From a virus, in IMG/VR virus record IMGVR_UViG_3300007169_000025, positions 1 through 64,000 of that record: a stretch of DNA of 64,000 bases, one strand, 5' to 3'. The notes beneath the pieces were generated by a model, which saw only the letters and a program-made list of their open reading frames with translations, made no database searches and was not told the origin of the DNA. A program made the translations under genes and the position numbers. Position 1 is the stretch's first letter. Each line of letters begins with the position of its first letter. Shown piece by piece: positions 4,206 to 22,423 of the stretch.

Positions 4206-7200
4206 TTAACGATCAGTTCTTAAAGTATTTGAATTAATTTTTTCAATAATCTCAATATCGTCAACTGTGGCTACACTTAAAAATAATTCGTTTGGTTCAG
4301 CTTTAACTTGGAATAGATTTCCAAATGTTCCTGTTGAAATTCTAGGTATGATTACTACTGTACCTATCGCACTACCTAGTTGTTGATGTATATAACTGCT
4401 TAGTTCAGTAAAATAAAATGTTTCACCAAACTCCCAGTTTTCAACATTAAAGTAGTCATTAATAGCAAGCAAAATTCTAGTCTTAATTTCGTTGTCACTT
4501 AATTGATTATTAAGTTTTACTACTCTAAATTTTGCTTGATAGTTTGTGTCTGCTAAGGAACCAAACAATAATTTAAACTTAGCACTTCTAAACACTAACG
4601 TATCACTTGCAGACTTGTATTCGTTTAGTTTACTAAATTCGTTTGCCAATTCGGCGCTGGTTGGCGGCAGTGGGAAGGTTGTTCTAGTTGGAGCAGCCTT
4701 CCACTCATTAATTAAATTGTTATAATTGTTAGTTAATACAAGCATTTCTACTACATTACTTATGCTCGGATCAATTCGTACATCTTTAGGCGCAACATGC
4801 TCCCAACGAATAATACTTTGATCAAAATTACTTGCGGCTGTATTTTGTGTTGGGCCGCGTCCGCGAACAACAAAGAAATCTGTAGTTTCTACAGGATATA
4901 CATTTAATGGATCTGTACTTTGCTGAGTCATTAGATAAACTTTATCTTCTTCTTCAGCATATACTTTGATACCAGCAGCTTTACCCTGATTGTTTTGCAA
5001 TGGTTGTAATGACGAACCGCCAGTAGCAATAACGTTTAGGTTCTTAACTAACAACCATTCTACGGCAGAAAGTGTATATTCTAACTTATAACTTGTTGCA
5101 CTGATTGTATCGTCAGCAAAGTTAATATTTAACGCATTTTCGTTGCGGTAATCTAGAATCACATCATATACTGGTCTGTCGTAGCTGTACCCATCAAAGT
5201 CAGTGTAATATTCATATACTGTAACGTCATCACGGTCAACATATTCAGAAAACTGTAGCGGACGATCAGGTATTAAATCGCCATCACTATCTACTGGGGC
5301 AACAATAACTTTTCTTGGATCTACATAACCGTCTGGATATTTGTAAACGTCAATAATTTGCCATTCGATTGGCTGAGAAATTCTATCTCTATTAGTTTTG
5401 TATGTTACAATAATTTGATCTTTATAAGATGTAAACCTATCTTTAGATATAAAATAATCGTTCTCTTCTAAATGGCTGTATACAAGATTACCAGTACCAG
5501 CAGTAACGTTTGCATTTGCTAGATATAGTCTACCTGATTTAGATGTATCAATAGCTGCGCCTGATGCACCATAGGAATAGCACACAGCGTTGCCATGGAA
5601 AATAGTTTCGTTAACGCTATTATTAGCAAATTGTCTGTAAGTAATATTTCCGTTAGCATCTAAAATGTTTTTACCAAAAGTTGTAGTATCAAATGGTATA
5701 ACAATAGAACTTGGAATTCGAGTTATCTGGCCTGTGTTGTTAGCAATTGTAACGTTGCTAGTAATAGCAGATTCAGTACCATCATCAAAGTATGTGTTAA
5801 GGGCAACAGTTGCTTCACCTACATAACGGTTTCCTGTTGATGGATTAATAATATTAGCAATTCTTGTTACCGGATTTGAACTAGTACCTGCACTAGAAAC
5901 ATCAAATAAACCAAAGTTGCTCTTCCAAGATACGCTGATGTCAAACCATCGTGTATCTCTAGTTTTTAGTGCAATGTCAGTGGCATATGCTCTAGGAATA
6001 TGAAATGCGCCGGTTTCTGTATTTCTCCAGCCGTAGGTCTCGCTATCTTTTTTATACCACTCAAACATTTCATTTGAACCTGGTGCTGTATTCAGCGTAG
6101 TAAATGTAATTGTATCCTGCGATGACTTATTGGTAACGTCAACTACTTTAACATTTTTTACATTGTAGAATTTTAGTTCATCGCGACTTTGAACAACATA
6201 ATGTTCACCGCGTAGTGTAACATTGTAGCGATATCTAAAATTATCAATTGGCGAGTATTCCATTAATACTAACCAAGATGAATCTTTTCCTAGACCGGAT
6301 GTATTCTTAGCATTAGCTGGGTTAAAGTCATCATCCCTGTTTAAGTTTTGGCTTTCAATTATATACCATTGATCCAATGACACATCATAACCTAGGCCAA
6401 ATGTTTGTCTATTTGTAATAGCAAATTGAATCAATGATGCTTCTGCAGACGTAAATAACTTTCTCAAGCTCACAATCATTTCGTCAGCGAACCAGCCTTG
6501 TGGAATTTCGCTACTTAATGTCCATGATCCCGTCCCGGATGTTAGTCCGCTAGTCAATGCGCCGTTATTTGTAACACCTAGAATTCTCACCCACTTATAA
6601 CTTAGATCAGATGAACTAACAAATTTAACAAAGTTATTTTCTCTAAACATTGATGTTCTAGTATCGTTGTTAGTCATAACAACTTTAGTACCACTACTAA
6701 ATGTCTCAGTCATATAGCCAACATCACTGCTGAGTTTCTGTGGCAATGGTTCCCATCTAATGTTTAGTGAATTAACTTTAAACTTGTTTGTAGTATAATC
6801 GGTCCATAGATTTCTTAATCCATAATATACAAAATTGTTTAAACTTTGTGTTTTTAATAGATTAGGTAAAATACCTGCTGTTACTTCTGCTGGAGTAGTA
6901 TTATCATTGATAATAATAGTATCAGTCTTGTTATTTTCTTCTGTGAATAAAATAGCATCGCGGGCAAACATATCAACGTTCTGATATGTACCTGTTGGAT
7001 CATTAATATCAATATATCTACTGTGACCAGCATGAGTTCTATTAATAGCCTTAATCTTAGTAATATTGGTGCTCTGACTTAATGGAAATACATTATAGTC
7101 CTGTGCGCTAACCATTCTGTTTTGAGTATAATAAACCTGTGGAGCACGTTGTTTAATTGACAACAGTGATTCTGGCGGTAAACTATTAGAAACTTTCTTT

Positions 7201-16688: not shown

Positions 16689-17567
16689 ATGACAACTGTA
16701 AAGAAGCAAAATTATCTAAACAACAAAGACATCTTAAAAGAAATTCACAAAAGTAAGATGACCTATTGTTATGTTGAGGATGACAAGTACAACATGTACG
16801 ATATCATTCTTGATAATGTTAAAGATATCAACAAAAAGAACATTAAGAAAGCTAAAGAAAATAAGGCTGCAAGATTGCAGGCCGATCAATATGCTGAAGC
16901 AATGGCTACGTTTGACAGCAAGGATTATCGCAACAAGCCAAAGCAAAAAGAGTTTGCTATTGACATAAACGATATAGCCGATGAAGATGTTGTGTTTCGT
17001 GTTATGACCTACGAGCATATTCCCGAAGAGGAAGGCCGTAAGAAGAATCCAAAGAACGAAGCAGAAGAAAAGAGTCGTGTAAATTTCCCCCCATTTAAGC
17101 ATTATGCTTATCAAAACGGTGAGCTTAAAGAAGTTGTTCGCAGTCACTGGCAGGGCAGTATTAGTAACGGACATTTTTCAGCCGAACATGGTCGCATTAC
17201 AAACAAGTTAGGCACAATGTTCCTCAAGCTGGTTGAGCGTTACAGTCATCGTGCTAACTGGCGTGGTTATACCTACGTTGATGAAATGCGCGGGCAAGCA
17301 CTAGTACAGCTAAGTCAAGTTGGGTTACAGTTTAATGAAGCAAAATCAGATAATCCTTTTGCTTATTATACTGCCGCTGTAAACAACAGCTTTACTCGAG
17401 TATTAAACTTAGAAAAGCGTAATCAAACTATTCGCGACGATATTCTTATTGAGCAAGGACACTTGCCCAGTTTCAGTCGCCAGCTAGCGCACGAGCAAGA
17501 ACTACGAGCTCTTAGAGAAAACGTAGAAAGTGAACGTCCTGCACATGAGGAATATGACGACGTATGA
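16689..17567 (+). CDS. gp55: Late transcription sigma factor gp55-like
   Basis: NYLNNKD, NWRGYTYVDEM and FNEAKSDNPFAYYT motifs; adjacent to gp47/gp46 as in T4-like phages. Confidence 0.85.
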   Translation: MTTVKKQNYLNNKDILKEIHKSKMTYCYVEDDKYNMYDIILDNVKDINKKNIKKAKENKAARLQADQYAEAMATFDSKDYRNKPKQKEFAIDINDIADEDVVFRVMTYEHIPEEEGRKKNPKNEAEEKSRVNFPPFKHYAYQNGELKEVVRSHWQGSISNGHFSAEHGRITNKLGTMFLKLVERYSHRANWRGYTYVDEMRGQALVQLSQVGLQFNEAKSDNPFAYYTAAVNNSFTRVLNLEKRNQTIRDDILIEQGHLPSFSRQLAHEQELRALRENVESERPAHEEYDDV

Positions 17568-18580
17568 GTCAGCTGTTTAAGACAGCGGCTTGCTTTACAG
17601 ATATCCACTACGGTTTAAAGCAGAACAGCCGCATTCACTTAGACGATTGTCATCGCTTTGTTGATTGGTTTATTGCAGAAGCAAAAGCTCGAGGTGCAGA
17701 GACCTGTATCTTCTTAGGCGACTGGAGTCACCATCGTGCCAGCGTTAACGTTGCTACAATGAACGCTAGCATTAAAGATCTAAAAAAGCTCAATGACAAT
17801 TTTGAAAAAGTTTACTTTATCACTGGTAATCACGACTTGTACTACAAGGACAAGCGTGAACTTAACAGCGTAGAGTATGCTCGTGATCTACCCAATTTTG
17901 TAATGGTAGATGAAAAGTTTGTGCAAGATGACGTTGCTATTTTGCCGTGGCTAGTAGCAGACGAGTGGAAGCAAGTACAGAAGATGAAAGTTAAGTACTT
18001 GTTTGGTCACTTAGAGCTGCCCTACTTCAAAATGAACGCAATGGTGGAAATGCCTGATCACGGTGGTCTCAAAGCAGAGCATTTGAGTGGGCCAGAATAT
18101 GTGTTCAGCGGACACTTCCACAAGCGTCAATACAAGAACAACATTCACTATATTGGTAATGCTTTCCCGCACAACTATGCAGACGTTGATGACAATGAAC
18201 GTGGTGCTATGTTCCTAACATGGGGCGAAGAACCAGTATATGTGAATTGGCCAGACTGTCCAAAGTTTAAGGTAATTTCTCTTTCAGATTTATTAGACAA
18301 CCATGAAAAATTACTTGACAGTTATACCTATGCTCGTGTAAAGTTAAACATTAGCATCAGTTACGAAGAAGCTAATTTTATCAGAGAGAAGTTTGCTGAA
18401 CAGTATAATGTTAGAGAACTTCAGCTAATTCCCGTTAAAGAAGAAGAACAGGAATTTGTTGGGGGCGAAATTAAATTTGAAAGTGTAGACCAGATTGTTA
18501 TTAGCCAGTTGGATACTATCGAATCTAACACGGTTGAAAAAGAATTACTAATTAAGATTTACAACGGATTAGAAACTTAA
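17564..18580 (+). CDS. gp47: Recombination endonuclease subunit gp47 (Mre11/SbcD-like)
   Basis: TDIHYG, FLGD, GNHD and SGHFH metallophosphoesterase motifs. Confidence 0.92.
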   Translation: MSQLFKTAACFTDIHYGLKQNSRIHLDDCHRFVDWFIAEAKARGAETCIFLGDWSHHRASVNVATMNASIKDLKKLNDNFEKVYFITGNHDLYYKDKRELNSVEYARDLPNFVMVDEKFVQDDVAILPWLVADEWKQVQKMKVKYLFGHLELPYFKMNAMVEMPDHGGLKAEHLSGPEYVFSGHFHKRQYKNNIHYIGNAFPHNYADVDDNERGAMFLTWGEEPVYVNWPDCPKFKVISLSDLLDNHEKLLDSYTYARVKLNISISYEEANFIREKFAEQYNVRELQLIPVKEEEQEFVGGEIKFESVDQIVISQLDTIESNTVEKELLIKIYNGLET

Positions 18581-20361
18581 TGTTAAAAATCAGAAACGTC
18601 AGCGCACGAAACTTTATGAGTATCGGCGCACAGACACAGGCTGTTAATTTTGATAACTGTAACCTAACACTAGTACTGGGTCATAATCTAGACCTAGGAG
18701 GTGATGGTAGCCGCAATGGTACTGGTAAGACCACTATTATTAATGCATTAAGCTATGCACTTTACGGTGAAGCACTAACAAACATTAAGAAAGATAACCT
18801 TATTAACAAAACCAACGGTAAGGGAATGATTGTTACTGTTGATTTTGAAATTAACAATAAAAACTATCGCATTGAGCGCGGCCGTAAACCTAATATTCTA
18901 CGACTTATTGTTGATGGTAACGACACAGGCGATGCATCAAACGAAGATGATGATGCACAGGGCGATAGCAGAGAAACACAAAAAGAAATAGAAAAAATTA
19001 TCGGGTTTCCGCATGAAATGTTTAAACACATTATTGCGCTTAACACTTACACAGAGCCGTTTTTGGCTATGAAAAGTAATGACCAGCGAGCAATGATTGA
19101 ATTGCTGCTAGGTATTACTGATCTAAGTAAAAAGGCTGATGTCCTTAAGGAATTACTAAAACAAACTAAAGATTCAATCAAAGAAGAAGAGATACGCATT
19201 AGTACTGTTAAGCTCAGTAATGAACGTATTGAAAAAAATATCACAGAGATTGAGAGCCGTAGTAGAGCATGGGATAAAACTAAATCTGACAAACTAGCAG
19301 ATATGCTTACTACTATTGAGACTCTTAACGAAATTGACATTTCTATTGAGATTGAAAATCACAAGTTAAATCAGGAAAATAAAGAAAAGTCTGATTCTAA
19401 GACTGTTCTAGAAAACGAACGCGATCGTACTGAAACATCGCTTAATCGCAGTAATAAAAAACTATTCGAGCTTGAAAACAATATTAAAAACGCACTCGAA
19501 GGTGTATGTCCTGCATGTAAACAGAGTACTGCACATTTAGATACACACGAAGAATATACTAAAGATCTTTATATTAAACTTAATGAGGAAAAGAAGTATA
19601 ACAGTGAAGTATCAGCAAGACTAGCTGAAATAACTGAAGCCATAGATGCCTTTGGCGTTATTGATGATACTAAAGACACATTCTATGACACCCTTGAAGC
19701 AGCACTTGAGCACAAGCATAATTTAGAAACACTAGCTACTCAGTATGCTGAAAAATTAGATGAGGCTAATCCTTACATTGAGCAAATTAATAGTCTCAGG
19801 GAATCAGGCTTGCAGGATATTAGTTTTGATTTGATCAACGAACTAACTTATCTTAAGGACCATCAGGAATTCCTACACAAGTTGTTAACCAGCAAGGATA
19901 GTTTTATTCGTAAGAAAATTATTGATCAAAATATTAGCTATCTAAATCATCGACTTGCATATTATATTGAAAAAATTGGTTTGCCACACGATGTTAAGTT
20001 TAACAGTGATCTTTCTGTAGAAATCACAGAATATGGGCGCGATTTAGATTTTGATAATCTAAGTCGCGGCGAACGTAATAGATTGATTTTAAGTCTAAGT
20101 TGGGCGTTTAGAGACGTATACGAAAGCCTCAATCATCCAATGAACCTAATGTGCATCGACGAGCTCATTGATTCAGGGATGGACACTATCGGTGTTGAGA
20201 ATTCACTCGCTATTCTTAAGAAAATGAATCGTGAGCAGCATAAGAATATTTTCCTCATTAGTCATAAAGAGGAATTAGTTGGGCGAGTTAATAACGTATT
20301 AACCGTTATTAAAGAAGGTGGCTTTACCAGCTACAACACTGATACTGAATATGTAGAATAA
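18580..20361 (+). CDS. gp46: Recombination ATPase subunit gp46 (Rad50/SbcC-like)
   Basis: Walker A NGTGKTT, CPAC zinc hook, LSRGE signature, IDE Walker B, ISH. Confidence 0.93.
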   Translation: MLKIRNVSARNFMSIGAQTQAVNFDNCNLTLVLGHNLDLGGDGSRNGTGKTTIINALSYALYGEALTNIKKDNLINKTNGKGMIVTVDFEINNKNYRIERGRKPNILRLIVDGNDTGDASNEDDDAQGDSRETQKEIEKIIGFPHEMFKHIIALNTYTEPFLAMKSNDQRAMIELLLGITDLSKKADVLKELLKQTKDSIKEEEIRISTVKLSNERIEKNITEIESRSRAWDKTKSDKLADMLTTIETLNEIDISIEIENHKLNQENKEKSDSKTVLENERDRTETSLNRSNKKLFELENNIKNALEGVCPACKQSTAHLDTHEEYTKDLYIKLNEEKKYNSEVSARLAEITEAIDAFGVIDDTKDTFYDTLEAALEHKHNLETLATQYAEKLDEANPYIEQINSLRESGLQDISFDLINELTYLKDHQEFLHKLLTSKDSFIRKKIIDQNISYLNHRLAYYIEKIGLPHDVKFNSDLSVEITEYGRDLDFDNLSRGERNRLILSLSWAFRDVYESLNHPMNLMCIDELIDSGMDTIGVENSLAILKKMNREQHKNIFLISHKEELVGRVNNVLTVIKEGGFTSYNTDTEYVE

Positions 20362-20405
20362 CCAAGATCAATTATTAATGTTCATTTTCATATTTAAATA
20401 TGAAT

Positions 20406-20828
20406 ATGGAATGGACATATAAAGGTCAAACAGTATCAGACTTGCCAGAGGGTACAGAGGCGTTTGTATATCTAATTACTAACCTTACTAACAACAGAAA
20501 ATATGTTGGTAAAAAGTTAGCAAAATTTAGAAAAACAAAGCCGCCTCTTAAGGGTAGAAAAAACAAGCGTAGAAGTACGATTGAAAGTGATTGGCGAGAG
20601 TATTGGGGTAGTAACGATCATCTTAAAGAAGATGTAGTACAACTAGGACCCGATAACTTTACTAGAGAAATACTTTATTTTTGTCCTAGCAGAGGTGTAG
20701 CTAGTTACTTAGAAGCTCGTGAACAATTTGAGAGAAGAGTACTCGAAACTGATGATTATTATAACGGTATTATCAATGTTCGAGTAGGTAGCTCACAAAT
20801 TTTAAGAGAATCGCTCAAGGCATTATAA
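20406..20828 (+). CDS. Stand-alone GIY-YIG endonuclease (EndoII/Seg-like, catalytic domain only)
   Basis: AFVYLITN...KYVGKK, YWGS, YLE and YYN motifs. Start placed at 20406 because of TAAATA-N5-ATG. Confidence 0.85.
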   Translation: MEWTYKGQTVSDLPEGTEAFVYLITNLTNNRKYVGKKLAKFRKTKPPLKGRKNKRRSTIESDWREYWGSNDHLKEDVVQLGPDNFTREILYFCPSRGVASYLEAREQFERRVLETDDYYNGIINVRVGSSQILRESLKAL

Positions 20829-20840
20829 CTACAAATACAC

Positions 20841-20919
20841 GGCACACATGGCATTTTTAAATTCCTTTCCGGCACATTAATTAAACTATTTTAGGCACAT
20901 TATAGGAACTGTACGGCAC
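20841..20919 (+). repeat. Four dispersed GGCAC(A) direct repeats in AT-rich spacers
   Basis: GGCAC at 20841, 20871, 20894 and 20915, plus GGCAT at 20850. Confidence 0.6.
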
Positions 20920-21240
20920 CCACGATGGTAGTGGGCTCCTTGAGGCTCCGTAGTTTTGGCTACGGCGTCAGATCTGGAGATACAGTCGCAAAGATGCAAT
21001 CTGCGTTATGGCATTGAAAGTATGTGGGCTCTGAGAAAAAGCAACCCACAAGTTGGTATAACTGAACTCTACCAGGTTATATCAATTTCCGCGGGATATC
21101 AGTGACGGAAGTGTATGGGGGGAAAAGGCTCGCTGCCTCCTAGTAGCACCCGGGTTAGAGATGGTGAAGCTCATCGTGATGACGCTTTTCTTTTTGTTCA
21201 CTCCGTAAGGGGTGAACTATGGCTCCACTTTCGTGATAAC
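20906..21240 (+). ncRNA. Candidate structured non-coding RNA or RNA-primed origin
   Basis: GC-richer stretch without a listed ORF, containing at least 7 stems: 20919-20935, 20948-20965, 20987-21005, 21023-21050, 21053-21085, 21087-21110 and 21196-21217 (GTAA tetraloop). G-U pairs favour the + strand. Confidence 0.5.
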
Positions 21241-21320
21241 TTCTTAATAATTAAATCAACTAAAAAAATATCTTACAAGTGAATGAGTGTAGTGAAACGA
21301 AACGAAAGAACGCAGTAAGA

Positions 21321-21338
21321 TAAGACCTTTAGGTCTTA
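21321..21338. terminator. Hairpin at the convergence of the + and - transcription units
   Basis: taagacc-ttta-ggtctta. Confidence 0.45.
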
Positions 21339-21353
21339 ACAGTATAGATGATG

Positions 21354-21596
21354 CTATAGGAATTCGTTCTTGGGTTTGCCTGCCTTAATGCGATTGAAGT
21401 CATTTATAACTTTAATGGCAGTTTCGCGATCATAATTGCTAAGGAACCACACTTCACTCCAGCTGAATGCACCTTCACTGTAAACGACTAGTTCAGTGAG
21501 CTGTAGATGAATTGCGGTTGCTTCGCTTCTTAGCCTGCCTAGATATGAAACTATCTCTTCAGGCGTGGCTCGTGCTAAGAAGCCGTGAAAAAATTT
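21354..21596 (-). CDS. gp51: gp51-like hub/tail assembly chaperone domain, -1 frameshift extension of gp26 (not in the ORF track)
   Basis: 80 sense codons, KFFHGFLARATPEEIVSYLGRLRSE...GAFSWSEVWFLSNYDRETAIKVINDFN...EFL*. No ATG; begins at a slippery site. Confidence 0.7.
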   Translation of the reverse strand, partial: KFFHGFLARATPEEIVSYLGRLRSEATAIHLQLTELVVYSEGAFSWSEVWFLSNYDRETAIKVINDFNRIKAGKPKNEFL

Positions 21597-22423
21597 ACAG
21601 GATCAAATCCAATGTCTTGTTCAAATGGACCGTGCTTGTCGCATTCCAATTGGATTTTCTTATTAACACCAATTTTGTTAATACTTTCAATTTGTTCTTC
21701 AATCTTACGGCCAATTGCAGTTTCACAGTTCTCTAAGAACTCTTTAATTTGTGCGCGGTCATAAACAGTGAACTCTTCTCCATTAGCTACACCGCTAACG
21801 CTGGCTACGCTGTCAACAACTAGATCAAAGTTCATTTGTGCAATACGCACAAAACTTTCGTTAAATGCTTTTAGCTGTTCCATTTCATCTGTAATTGAAG
21901 AAATACTTTGTAGGCTGCGAGTGCTTTGGAAATTTGCAATACCTGCCTTAACAGTACTTTCATATGTAAACGGTCTTAGTGTAATTTCTAAGCCGCTGTC
22001 AGTTTTAAAACTATAAGTTTCTTCTAGAATACTCATAGTTTCTAGTGCAGATTCAACACTAGCAGACGCTGAACACACTTCCCCACATTCTGGACATTTA
22101 CCCGAAACGTCTACACTATCACCGCGACTAGCACCTTGAATAGCAACTAATAATGCTTCAATATCGTTGGAAATCATTTTGCGTGGATTTTTTACTGCGG
22201 GTACACAGCTCATGATAACCTGTGCAACAGCTTCACCGTTAAGCAGCGCATCAGGATTTTTCAAAAGTACTTCGTCCTTAGCAGTCATTGGAAAAATTGG
22301 TAGTTCGCCTGTTTCAGGCATGTCAACTACGTCTTCTGTATAAAATCTTCCAAGACTTGGAAGTTTAGTATACATCTTTGGTGTTCTAAAAAATCCTGCT
22401 AATGGATTGTGTGTCTTTGCCAT
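21575..22423 (-). CDS. gp26: Baseplate hub assembly protein gp26-like
   Basis: KLPSLG, PMTAKDEVLLKNPDALLNG, CPEC and C..H motifs; C-terminal NFF. Confidence 0.8.
   Translation of the reverse strand: MAKTHNPLAGFFRTPKMYTKLPSLGRFYTEDVVDMPETGELPIFPMTAKDEVLLKNPDALLNGEAVAQVIMSCVPAVKNPRKMISNDIEALLVAIQGASRGDSVDVSGKCPECGEVCSASASVESALETMSILEETYSFKTDSGLEITLRPFTYESTVKAGIANFQSTRSLQSISSITDEMEQLKAFNESFVRIAQMNFDLVVDSVASVSGVANGEEFTVYDRAQIKEFLENCETAIGRKIEEQIESINKIGVNKKIQLECDKHGPFEQDIGFDPVNFFTAS

Follow-up and report, generated by a model that had tools for sequence, protein, structure and literature searches.

A large covarying RNA, apparently of a new family, beside a minimal GIY-YIG nuclease gene in uncultured T4-related jumbo phages

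In the first 64 kb of a virus contig of 104 kb in IMG/VR (record IMGVR_UViG_3300007169_000025, positions 1 to 64,000; hereafter, the window), one ORF-free stretch is far longer than any other; what lies in it? The stretch, which follows a gene for a small GIY-YIG nuclease, contains no open reading frames (ORFs) of ≥60 aa over 683 nt, compared with 177 nt for the runner-up, and the original prediction, made from the letters of the window, was right to call it the largest noncoding gap. That prediction offered two models, namely, (a) an undescribed noncoding RNA (ncRNA) that partners the nuclease, and (b) a primer-RNA (R-loop) replication origin of the ColE1 or T4 kind, and every sequence feature that it named was found in its place when the sequence was inspected. 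Comparison of homologous loci now indicates that the gap is a conserved + strand RNA and not the product of chance folding. The RNA is approximately 430 nt long (about 20907–21340, + strand) and has approximately 15 helices. We consider it very probable that it is an autonomous structured ncRNA of a new family and, so far as could be found, this is a new and so far undescribed family of large structured ncRNAs in uncultured aquatic T4-related jumbo phages. The first half of model (a) is thus supported, in that the RNA is conserved, covarying, on the + strand, and without a match in Rfam.

The nuclease has at least 596 relatives in IMG/VR, and the DNA downstream of the gene was surveyed in the best 80 of these loci. 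In 40 of the 80, an nhmmer profile of the gap detected a homologous element immediately downstream of the nuclease gene on the same strand (type 1), and in 27 of the other 40, a diverged RNA (type 2) was detected with a regular expression; most of the remaining 13 loci end too soon after the nuclease gene for a decision. Type 1 comprises four clades, for which RNAalifold, run on each clade, gave one common architecture. Type 2, which is up to ~540 nt long and begins at the stop codon of the nuclease gene, has the 5′ motif, the 3′ boxes, a UUCG-type hairpin, the tail motif, and the terminal hairpin in common with type 1, and differs in the core. When IMG/VR was scanned by RNA motif alone, which avoids circularity with the nuclease, at least 118 loci with the type-1 pattern and at least 120 with the type-2 pattern were found. 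A blastn search of 50,697 phage records at “distant” sensitivity returned nothing for three RNA queries (the window and loci L047 and L024). A third variant was seen at four loci (L074, L077, L078, and L079), approximately 190–640 nt after the nuclease gene; it has an AT-rich spacer of ~190 nt, the motif GGCACA..TATAGGCAC, a 5′ domain like that of clades C and D, and a different remainder, and it was missed by the type-1 profile and the type-2 pattern alike.

Covariation was counted in two alignments. The central and 3′ part (alignment A2; window 20988–21246) was represented by 79 non-identical type-1 RNAs and 55 hand-curated pairs. Standard pairs occurred in 88.9% of the cells, as against 40.3–48.8% when the 3′ partners were slid by 1–3 columns; both sides had changed at 36 pairs, as against 19–27 in the slid controls, and the covariation score was 0.459, as against 0.084–0.146. 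In the tail (alignment A5; short-form P14 plus P15, 75 sequences), 86.4% of the cells were paired, as against 35–40% in the slid controls, with compensatory changes at 13 of the 16 pairs, and P14 was 79.3% paired after correction of its register (66.8% when one column out). The covariation that the original prediction had proposed to look for downstream of homologous GIY-YIG genes is strong by both sets of counts. G-U pairs are abundant, and columns 150/169 are G-U in 76 of 76 rows; because conserved G-U pairs would be A-C on the other strand, the RNA was assigned to the + strand, and the earlier argument from G-U wobbles holds with the invariant G-U pairs of A2. The longest frame in the gap (55 aa) is open in just 7 of the 79 homologues, indicating that the gap is noncoding, and small peptides starting from AUG, GUG, or UUG within the boxes were not conserved when read on the alignments. 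The parts of the RNA are as follows.

20841..20906, + strand: spacer with GGCAC repeats (20841, 20871, 20894) and the 5′ motif AGGCACATTATAGG (20893–20906), directly before the first helix
20908..20986, + strand: 5′ domain, P1 (20908–13/20981–86, ACTGTA/TACAGT) around P2, P3, and P4, from per-clade RNAalifold
20919–23/20931–35, + strand: P2 hairpin, CCCAC/GTGGG, inside P1
20936–39/20976–79, + strand: P3, CTCC/GGAG, inside P1 and enclosing P4
20944–53/20960–69, + strand: P4 hairpin (CCGTAG/CTACGG, 20948–65), inside P3
20993..21015, + strand: P5 hairpin, GAUGC/GCAUU, 90.2% paired, both-side changes in 3/5 pairs
21024..21049, + strand: P6, GUGGG/CCCAC, with the near-invariant loop CUCUGAGAAAAAGCAAC, 96.6% paired, 4/5 pairs compensatory
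21051..21087, + strand: P7, a 13-bp stem (21051–63/21075–87), 94.2% paired, both-side changes in 13/13 pairs
21091..21133, + strand: H-type pseudoknot (21091–95/21129–33, P10 loop), 100% paired in 76 distinct rows, 4/5 pairs compensatory
21106..21152, + strand: P9 (21106–08 and 21111–14 with 21146–52) around P10, 87.7% paired, 6/7 pairs compensatory
21117–21/21136–40, + strand: P10, G6 tract with CCUCC, 86.1% paired, one compensatory pair
21174..21183, + strand: box M1, TCGTGATGAC, which changes in concert with M2 (35 distinct box pairs)
21196..21217, + strand: P12 hairpin with a GUAA loop, 80.6% paired, 3/8 pairs compensatory, with alignment slips in the loop
21216..21240, + strand: segment X (21216–21) and box M2 (21231–40, TCGTGATAAC); X can form a local hairpin with M2 or can pair with M1 around P12
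21270..21321, + strand: P14, outer stem ATCTTAC/GTAAGAT, interior with GA/GA internal loops, from RNAalifold of clades A and B
21322..21337, + strand: P15 terminal hairpin, AAGACC/GGTCTT, 88.4% paired, 7/8 pairs compensatory

The motif AGGCA[AC]A..TATA[AG]G is found ahead of the RNA in every clade and also in loci without an adjacent nuclease gene. The nested domain that had been noticed in the sequence (ACTGTA/TACAGT around two hairpins and CTCC/GGAG) proved to be P1 enclosing P2 and P3, with P4 inside P3. This architecture recurs in single-sequence folds of many relatives, including distant ones, and alignment A3 contains compensatory variants of P1 (CUGUA/UACAG, CUAUAC/GUAUAG, CCAUAC/GUAUGG, and GCAAC/GUUGC) and of P3 (CUCC/GGAG, CUCU/AGAG, UACU/AGUA, and AUCC/GGAU). 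In the core, the positions of the P6 loop are invariant across the 79 sequences, and the stem predicted at ~15 bp is P7, with 13 bp, every one of which shows compensatory change. The pseudoknot, which was absent from the structure as first drawn and was discovered by an all-against-all scan of columns, varies in sequence: four of its five pairs occur in three types each. The G6-A4 tract (21117–26), the GTAA-loop hairpin, and the two TCGTGAT(G/A)AC copies of the original prediction are all present as described; P12 is found in all clades, and the P14 motif is unique in the 104-kb contig. The junction after P10 appears to tolerate insertions, because one member of clade D (L015:3523–3821) carries an insertion of ~35 nt there with its own hairpin.

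The RNA does not belong to a family that the searches could recognize. Rfam 15 gave no match at the gathering score over the whole 64-kb window and, at E ≤10, four chance-level matches to eukaryotic small nucleolar RNAs or microRNAs within 20300–21500 (13–21 bits vs cut-offs of 54–74), in agreement with the earlier remark that the locus matches no recognized RNA family; ARAGORN detected no transfer RNA or transfer-messenger RNA. A box C/D or kink-turn element (prompted by UGAUGA in M1), in which a C box, RUGAUGA, pairs with a D box, CUGA, over a 3-nt bulge with tandem G-A pairs, was rejected on reading the alignments by hand, given that type 1 has no conserved CUGA partner and the flanks are without the required stems; the second box is a direct repeat and no D box. 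An RNA of a type III toxin-antitoxin system (ToxI-like) was also rejected. ToxI-like systems have a tandem array of identical repeats upstream of an endoribonuclease toxin gene, whereas here, just two 10-nt boxes lie within a unique 430-nt fold, 3′ of a gene of the GIY-YIG (DNase) type.

No description of the RNA was found in the literature, the alignment files of the catalogue in PMC10690425 not being covered. That catalogue, which was likewise derived from IMG/VR and likewise relies on covariation in the intergenic DNA of phages, describes candidate structured RNA motifs that are 29–151 nt long, in contrast to one RNA of ~430 nt here. Four motif strings of the RNA were absent from the supplements searched, with three files, probably including the alignments, outside the search, and single hairpins of the RNA may be in the catalogue. 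Among known RNAs, GOLLD and ROOL are similar in being several hundred nucleotides long and phage-borne, with many covarying helices and pseudoknots and with modular variable and conserved halves; according to the abstract of PMC12286853, both form RNA-only homo-oligomers. The RNA described here has the features of such large ornate phage ncRNAs, being >300 nt long, phage-encoded, and noncoding, with many covarying helices (36 + 13 compensatory pairs). It is smaller than GOLLD and ROOL and has no sequence or structure match to them (Rfam 15), and unlike them, it occurs in T4-related jumbo phages of aquatic samples, has twin boxes that change in concert, and has a nuclease gene as its fixed neighbor.

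The twin boxes show an unexpected pattern of change. Positions 3–9, 11, and 12 of M1 and M2 (TCGTGAT(G/A)AC) are the same within a genome (0.83–1.0; 79 RNAs with 35 distinct pairs), and positions 3, 4, 5, 11, and 12 vary between genomes, with two loci from a different phage, L110 and L123, adding a further state. Because the changes are identical rather than complementary, the boxes do not pair with each other. Segment X forms standard pairs with M1 in 88% of cases and with M2 in 90% (12 distinct combinations), and pairing with either box would give two mutually exclusive folds. This pairing alone does not explain the identity of the boxes, because wobble pairs tolerate variation. M1 and M2 may be a pair of sites at which one sequence-specific partner binds, or they may be the halves of a balanced switch.

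Signs that the RNA is made were sought in public assemblies. Contigs from four runs recorded as RNA libraries, belonging to four studies, cover 20843–21294; two of them (20905–21093 and 21122–21294) have zero differences from the window, and two (20843–21190 and 20853–21176) come from close relatives. For gp46, gp26, and the tape-measure gene, the same four runs yielded no contigs of any length worth noting; lack of cover carries no weight in such data. These contigs give a hint that the RNA is made.

Taken as a whole, the observations are best explained, as we hold with moderate confidence, by an RNA of a new family that acts in trans. The RNA starts at or just after the AGGCA..TATAGG motif at the end of the nuclease gene, ends at the covarying terminal hairpin, and folds into a 5′ domain (P1–P4), a pseudoknotted core with invariant loops (P5–P10), a 3′ box module around a hairpin, and a GA/GA tail. 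In action, it would be stable and would bind at least one partner, with the invariant loops and the GA motifs as contact surfaces and the twin boxes as sites for one sequence-specific partner or as two states of a switch with X. We tentatively suggest that it serves during infection as a scaffold or decoy that acts in trans through a pair of partner sites, rather than as a cis regulator or a replication primer.

Several observations weigh against this reading. The folding energy of the whole gap is no better than that of shuffles (z of −0.29 for the + strand and −1.56 for the − strand), so the description of the locus as highly structured rests on comparative evidence and not on thermodynamics. 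None of 500 shuffles of A2 attained any of the five measures, although shuffle controls overstate significance because the sequences are related, and the slid-partner controls are fairer. No formal count of covariation is given for the 5′ domain, because MAFFT misregisters the clades by 1 nt, and helix P11 as drawn (GAUG/CAUC) is only 66.8% paired, with other registers available. As to a partner for the boxes, complementary covariation with them was found at no other column of the RNA, and the 104-kb contig contains no complementary 10-mer beyond chance (exact matches, the boxes only; one-mismatch matches, 3 + 8 vs 11 + 11 in the control). The RNA-library contigs show neither strand nor ends, and carried-over DNA is possible. 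Finally, the neighborhood points to a possible functional tie to the nuclease. Among the 118 type-1 matches listed by RNA motif alone, 89 have the nuclease gene directly upstream and co-oriented, 5 have too little upstream DNA, 15 are chance pattern matches (no nuclease gene and no nhmmer match), and 9 are real RNAs without a nuclease hit, 5 of which have just 300 nt of upstream DNA; the gene is therefore directly upstream in 89 of the 98 confirmed type-1 loci among these matches. Among the 120 type-2 matches listed, the gene is upstream in 64 of the 64 that could be decided, and 56 are too short.

How close, then, is the tie between the RNA and the nuclease? The gene concerned is the following.

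20400..20828, + strand: SegE-type GIY-YIG nuclease gene, 142 aa, catalytic domain only (PF19835, E 2.3e-33; phrog_447, E 6e-36)

The PF19835 match covers residues 5–125 of 142 (115.5 bits vs a cut-off of 25), which confirms that the gene encodes a catalytic domain only. VY24, KY35xG37, R58, E90, and E105 are invariant in 12 homologues and N122 is nearly so; we take Y24, Y35, G37, R58, E90, E105, and N122 to be the GIY-YIG catalytic positions. A basic stretch, K38–R58, is also conserved, and no relative with a solved structure was found by sequence. In phage records, members of the family (phrog_447) are widely annotated as “NAD synthetase,” a label that the Pfam SegE GIY-YIG match contradicts and that seems to be an error copied from record to record.

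The RNA and the nuclease gene also occur apart. In L107 and L142, the gene is upstream on the same strand at 1–1.5 kb from the RNA, with one or two genes between them, and the 5′ motif is kept. L110 and L123 are contigs (4.0 and 8.1 kb) of a different phage that have no nuclease gene and have a complete homologous RNA directly upstream of the small and large terminase genes, including the P6 loop, P7, the twin boxes, P12, and the pseudoknot with a new compensatory set of pairs; CheckV completeness suggests that this phage has a much smaller genome. In L345 (G003 contig, ~4450–4900) and L346, the full homologue lies between ORFs of 75 and 78 aa and just before the small and large terminase genes, in a contig of another, apparently small phage that has no GIY-YIG gene. 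Conversely, in the two isolates inspected, Melnitz (whose nuclease is 72% identical, basic stretch included) and S-SRM01, there is no RNA downstream of the gene. Because of L107/L142, L110/L123, Melnitz, and S-SRM01, we regard the RNA as an autonomous unit, whose association with the nuclease gene is strong in the lineage and not obligate. As to the second half of model (a), partnership with the nuclease is not demonstrated: adjacency is very frequent, and each also occurs without the other.

This separability fits an explanation that we consider unlikely, in which the nuclease is a free-standing endonuclease of the homing type that has settled by a conserved RNA gene, as a target or safe harbor, and the products of the two genes do not interact. 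The location of the cassette at the junction of conserved modules and the SegE-family match agree with this explanation, and the seg genes of T4 sit beside conserved genes. However, the gene is nearly universal in the lineage rather than sporadic, and each of 291 isolate records with the family, 208 of them from Synechococcus phages, has a single copy. In addition, the nuclease lacks a DNA-binding domain, which site-specific homing enzymes normally need.

The same lack of a DNA-binding part, together with the conserved basic stretch, leads to another explanation, to which we give a rather low probability, namely, that the RNA would serve the minimal nuclease as the subunit that recognizes nucleic acids, as an adaptor or a guide, much as HEARO RNA turned out to do for IscB. 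HEARO (omega RNA of IscB) is likewise a large structured RNA beside a small nuclease gene and was likewise first found by comparative genomics; it lies upstream of, and guides, a RuvC/HNH nuclease. The adjacency counted above, the start of type 2 at the stop codon, and the retention of the gene upstream on the same strand in L107 and L142 would fit such a subunit. So would clade B, in which the nuclease gene and the RNA are inverted as one block between gp46 and gp26, although joint inversion is to be expected anyway if the pair is the sole content between the breakpoints. In ten loci with the inverted block (L039, L044, L046, L049, L056, L066, L067, L069, L071, and L081), 0.8–2 kb of other DNA was observed after the RNA. 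Unlike HEARO, the RNA here lies downstream of a nuclease of the GIY-YIG type, and no hypervariable, guide-like segment was identified in it. Nor is there the obligate co-occurrence of HEARO-type pairs: L110 and L123 carry the RNA alone, the cultured phage PA5oct has a match to the tail model (R1, below) and no PF19835 gene, and the nuclease family, basic stretch included, is present in the 291 isolate records, of which Melnitz and S-SRM01 have the gene alone. It is similarly doubtful that jumbo phages use the pair as an RNA-guided or RNA-assisted GIY-YIG system to attack host DNA or competing phages, in which the target would be read by the twin boxes or by a variable linker; RNAs without an adjacent nuclease would then rely on a nuclease gene at another site or be orphans.

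The setting of the locus is as follows. On its 5′ side lie a late sigma factor gene (gp55-like, 16689–17567) and genes for SbcD/SbcC-like recombination nucleases (gp47/gp46-like), which span 17564–20361. gp46 stops before the nuclease gene starts, both genes have their own stops, and the gene 3′ of the RNA is on the − strand, so that the flanking operons converge at the locus, the + strand operon ending here as it runs toward that of gp26. The neighbor on the 3′ side, outside the RNA, is the following.

21354..22423, − strand: gp26-like baseplate hub gene (PF12322); annotated part 21575–22423, with a probable −1 frameshift extension to 21354

The annotated part ends GTA AAT TTT TTC ACG GCT TCT TAG (stop at 21575–77, − strand); past T TTT TTC, the −1 frame is open until a stop at 21354 and takes in a 32-aa ORF at 21354–21452. 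A programmed −1 frameshift that yields a long form is therefore probable from the reading frames, and with this extension, the true noncoding span is 20829–21353.

This convergence, with the hairpin P15 at the end of the RNA, is what one would expect if the RNA were a cis-acting 3′ untranslated region of the nuclease mRNA, or an insulator between converging transcripts, that stabilizes or terminates transcription products, and one RNA-library contig does span the 3′ end of a relative's nuclease gene and runs into the RNA. We give this explanation little credence. Approximately 15 covarying helices, a pseudoknot, and invariant loops exceed the needs of a terminator, and the RNA retains its form in other settings, among them a position within an operon ahead of terminase genes. 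P15 lacks a U tract and was not called an intrinsic terminator in the terminator scan; scans for sigma-70 promoters and terminators were at chance level. The spacer at 20841–20906 may serve as the RNA's own promoter or form part of its 5′ region, and AGGCA..TATAGG, with one site in the 64-kb window, is not a general promoter of the phage. Within 20841–20898, we observed three copies of GGCAC(A) and one GGCAT in the 80-nt spacer before the RNA, and in relatives, tandem copies of AAGGCACAC at the matching position; these repeats are possible protein sites or part of a promoter.

We find it equally improbable that the RNA is self-processing or a two-state switch, in which the boxes would be identical processing or exchange sites around P12 and X would toggle between them, by ribozyme cleavage or by repeat-mediated template jumping as in some retroelement RNAs. 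The concerted identity of the boxes, the pairing of X with either box, and a size and complexity in the range of ribozymes are consistent with this, but Rfam contains no matching ribozyme and no reverse transcriptase lies nearby. No joints or ends were seen, though the contigs could not show them.

The primer-RNA origin of model (b), of the ColE1 or T4 oriF type, was not supported and is highly improbable. As in ColE1 RNA II and T4 oriF/oriG, there is a long structured or persistent transcript with a G-rich tract; unlike in those primers, the G6 tract is paired with CCUCC within the RNA, in the conserved helix P10, whose loop forms the covarying pseudoknot. Selection preserves G-U pairs, that is, RNA folding, and the genes converge rather than diverge. 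The proposed check by GC skew also spoke against an origin, since the cumulative minimum lies at ~14–16 kb, where gene orientation flips, and the skew is monotonic across the locus. We assign a negligible probability to a degenerate group I intron or other intron relic left by a homing gene: group I introns of phages are similar in size and frequently carry GIY-YIG genes, but there is no Intron_gpI or gpII match at E ≤10, no exons, and no interrupted gene, and the fold is under strong purifying selection in hundreds of loci. Neither of the matches that the original prediction had named as refuting it, to a known Rfam family or to an intron remnant, was thus found.

Could a cultured phage carry the trans-acting RNA that we favor? 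By gp46, the nearest isolates are Pseudomonas jumbo phages of the PA5oct type (52.7% identity). The tail model R1, in which the P14 stem is shifted by one column and which does not match the window's own long-form tail, has one match in the 287-kb PA5oct genome (76970–77030; 24.9 bits, rough E of 0.018), at the syntenic spot: the gp46 block and the baseplate hub are separated there by 1.3 kb with few ORFs, and the match falls at the end of this stretch. R1 gave no credible genome-wide match in Melnitz, S-SRM01, Phosso, Atu_ph07, or Vibrio phage 2.275.O, and nhmmer sequence profiles found nothing significant in the PA5oct locus. On visual inspection, the PA5oct stretch (L331:6555–8031, NC_071039.1 ~75.7–77.2 kb), which has only four annotated ORFs of 117–153 nt, also shows UAGGCAAUAUAAG as a start motif, a hairpin like P12 with UUUAUGAC after it, and twin boxes that differ in sequence from those of the window. 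According to PMC7318152, the four published ncRNAs of PA5oct lie elsewhere. PA5oct as a cultured carrier of the RNA is a lead from sequence likeness and not a result.

Large folded ncRNAs are rare, and the few with a solved function are ribozymes, guides, or self-assembling particles. The RNA described here is abundant in public viromes, with >230 loci, and the weak match in PA5oct may offer an entry to laboratory work. Because its pseudoknotted core covaries strongly, a three-dimensional model or a cryo-electron microscopy study is realistic. Boxes that mutate in step are an unusual evolutionary signal pointing to a sequence-specific partner, and the neighboring nuclease, which has no DNA-binding part, gives a concrete HEARO-like hypothesis for these phages.

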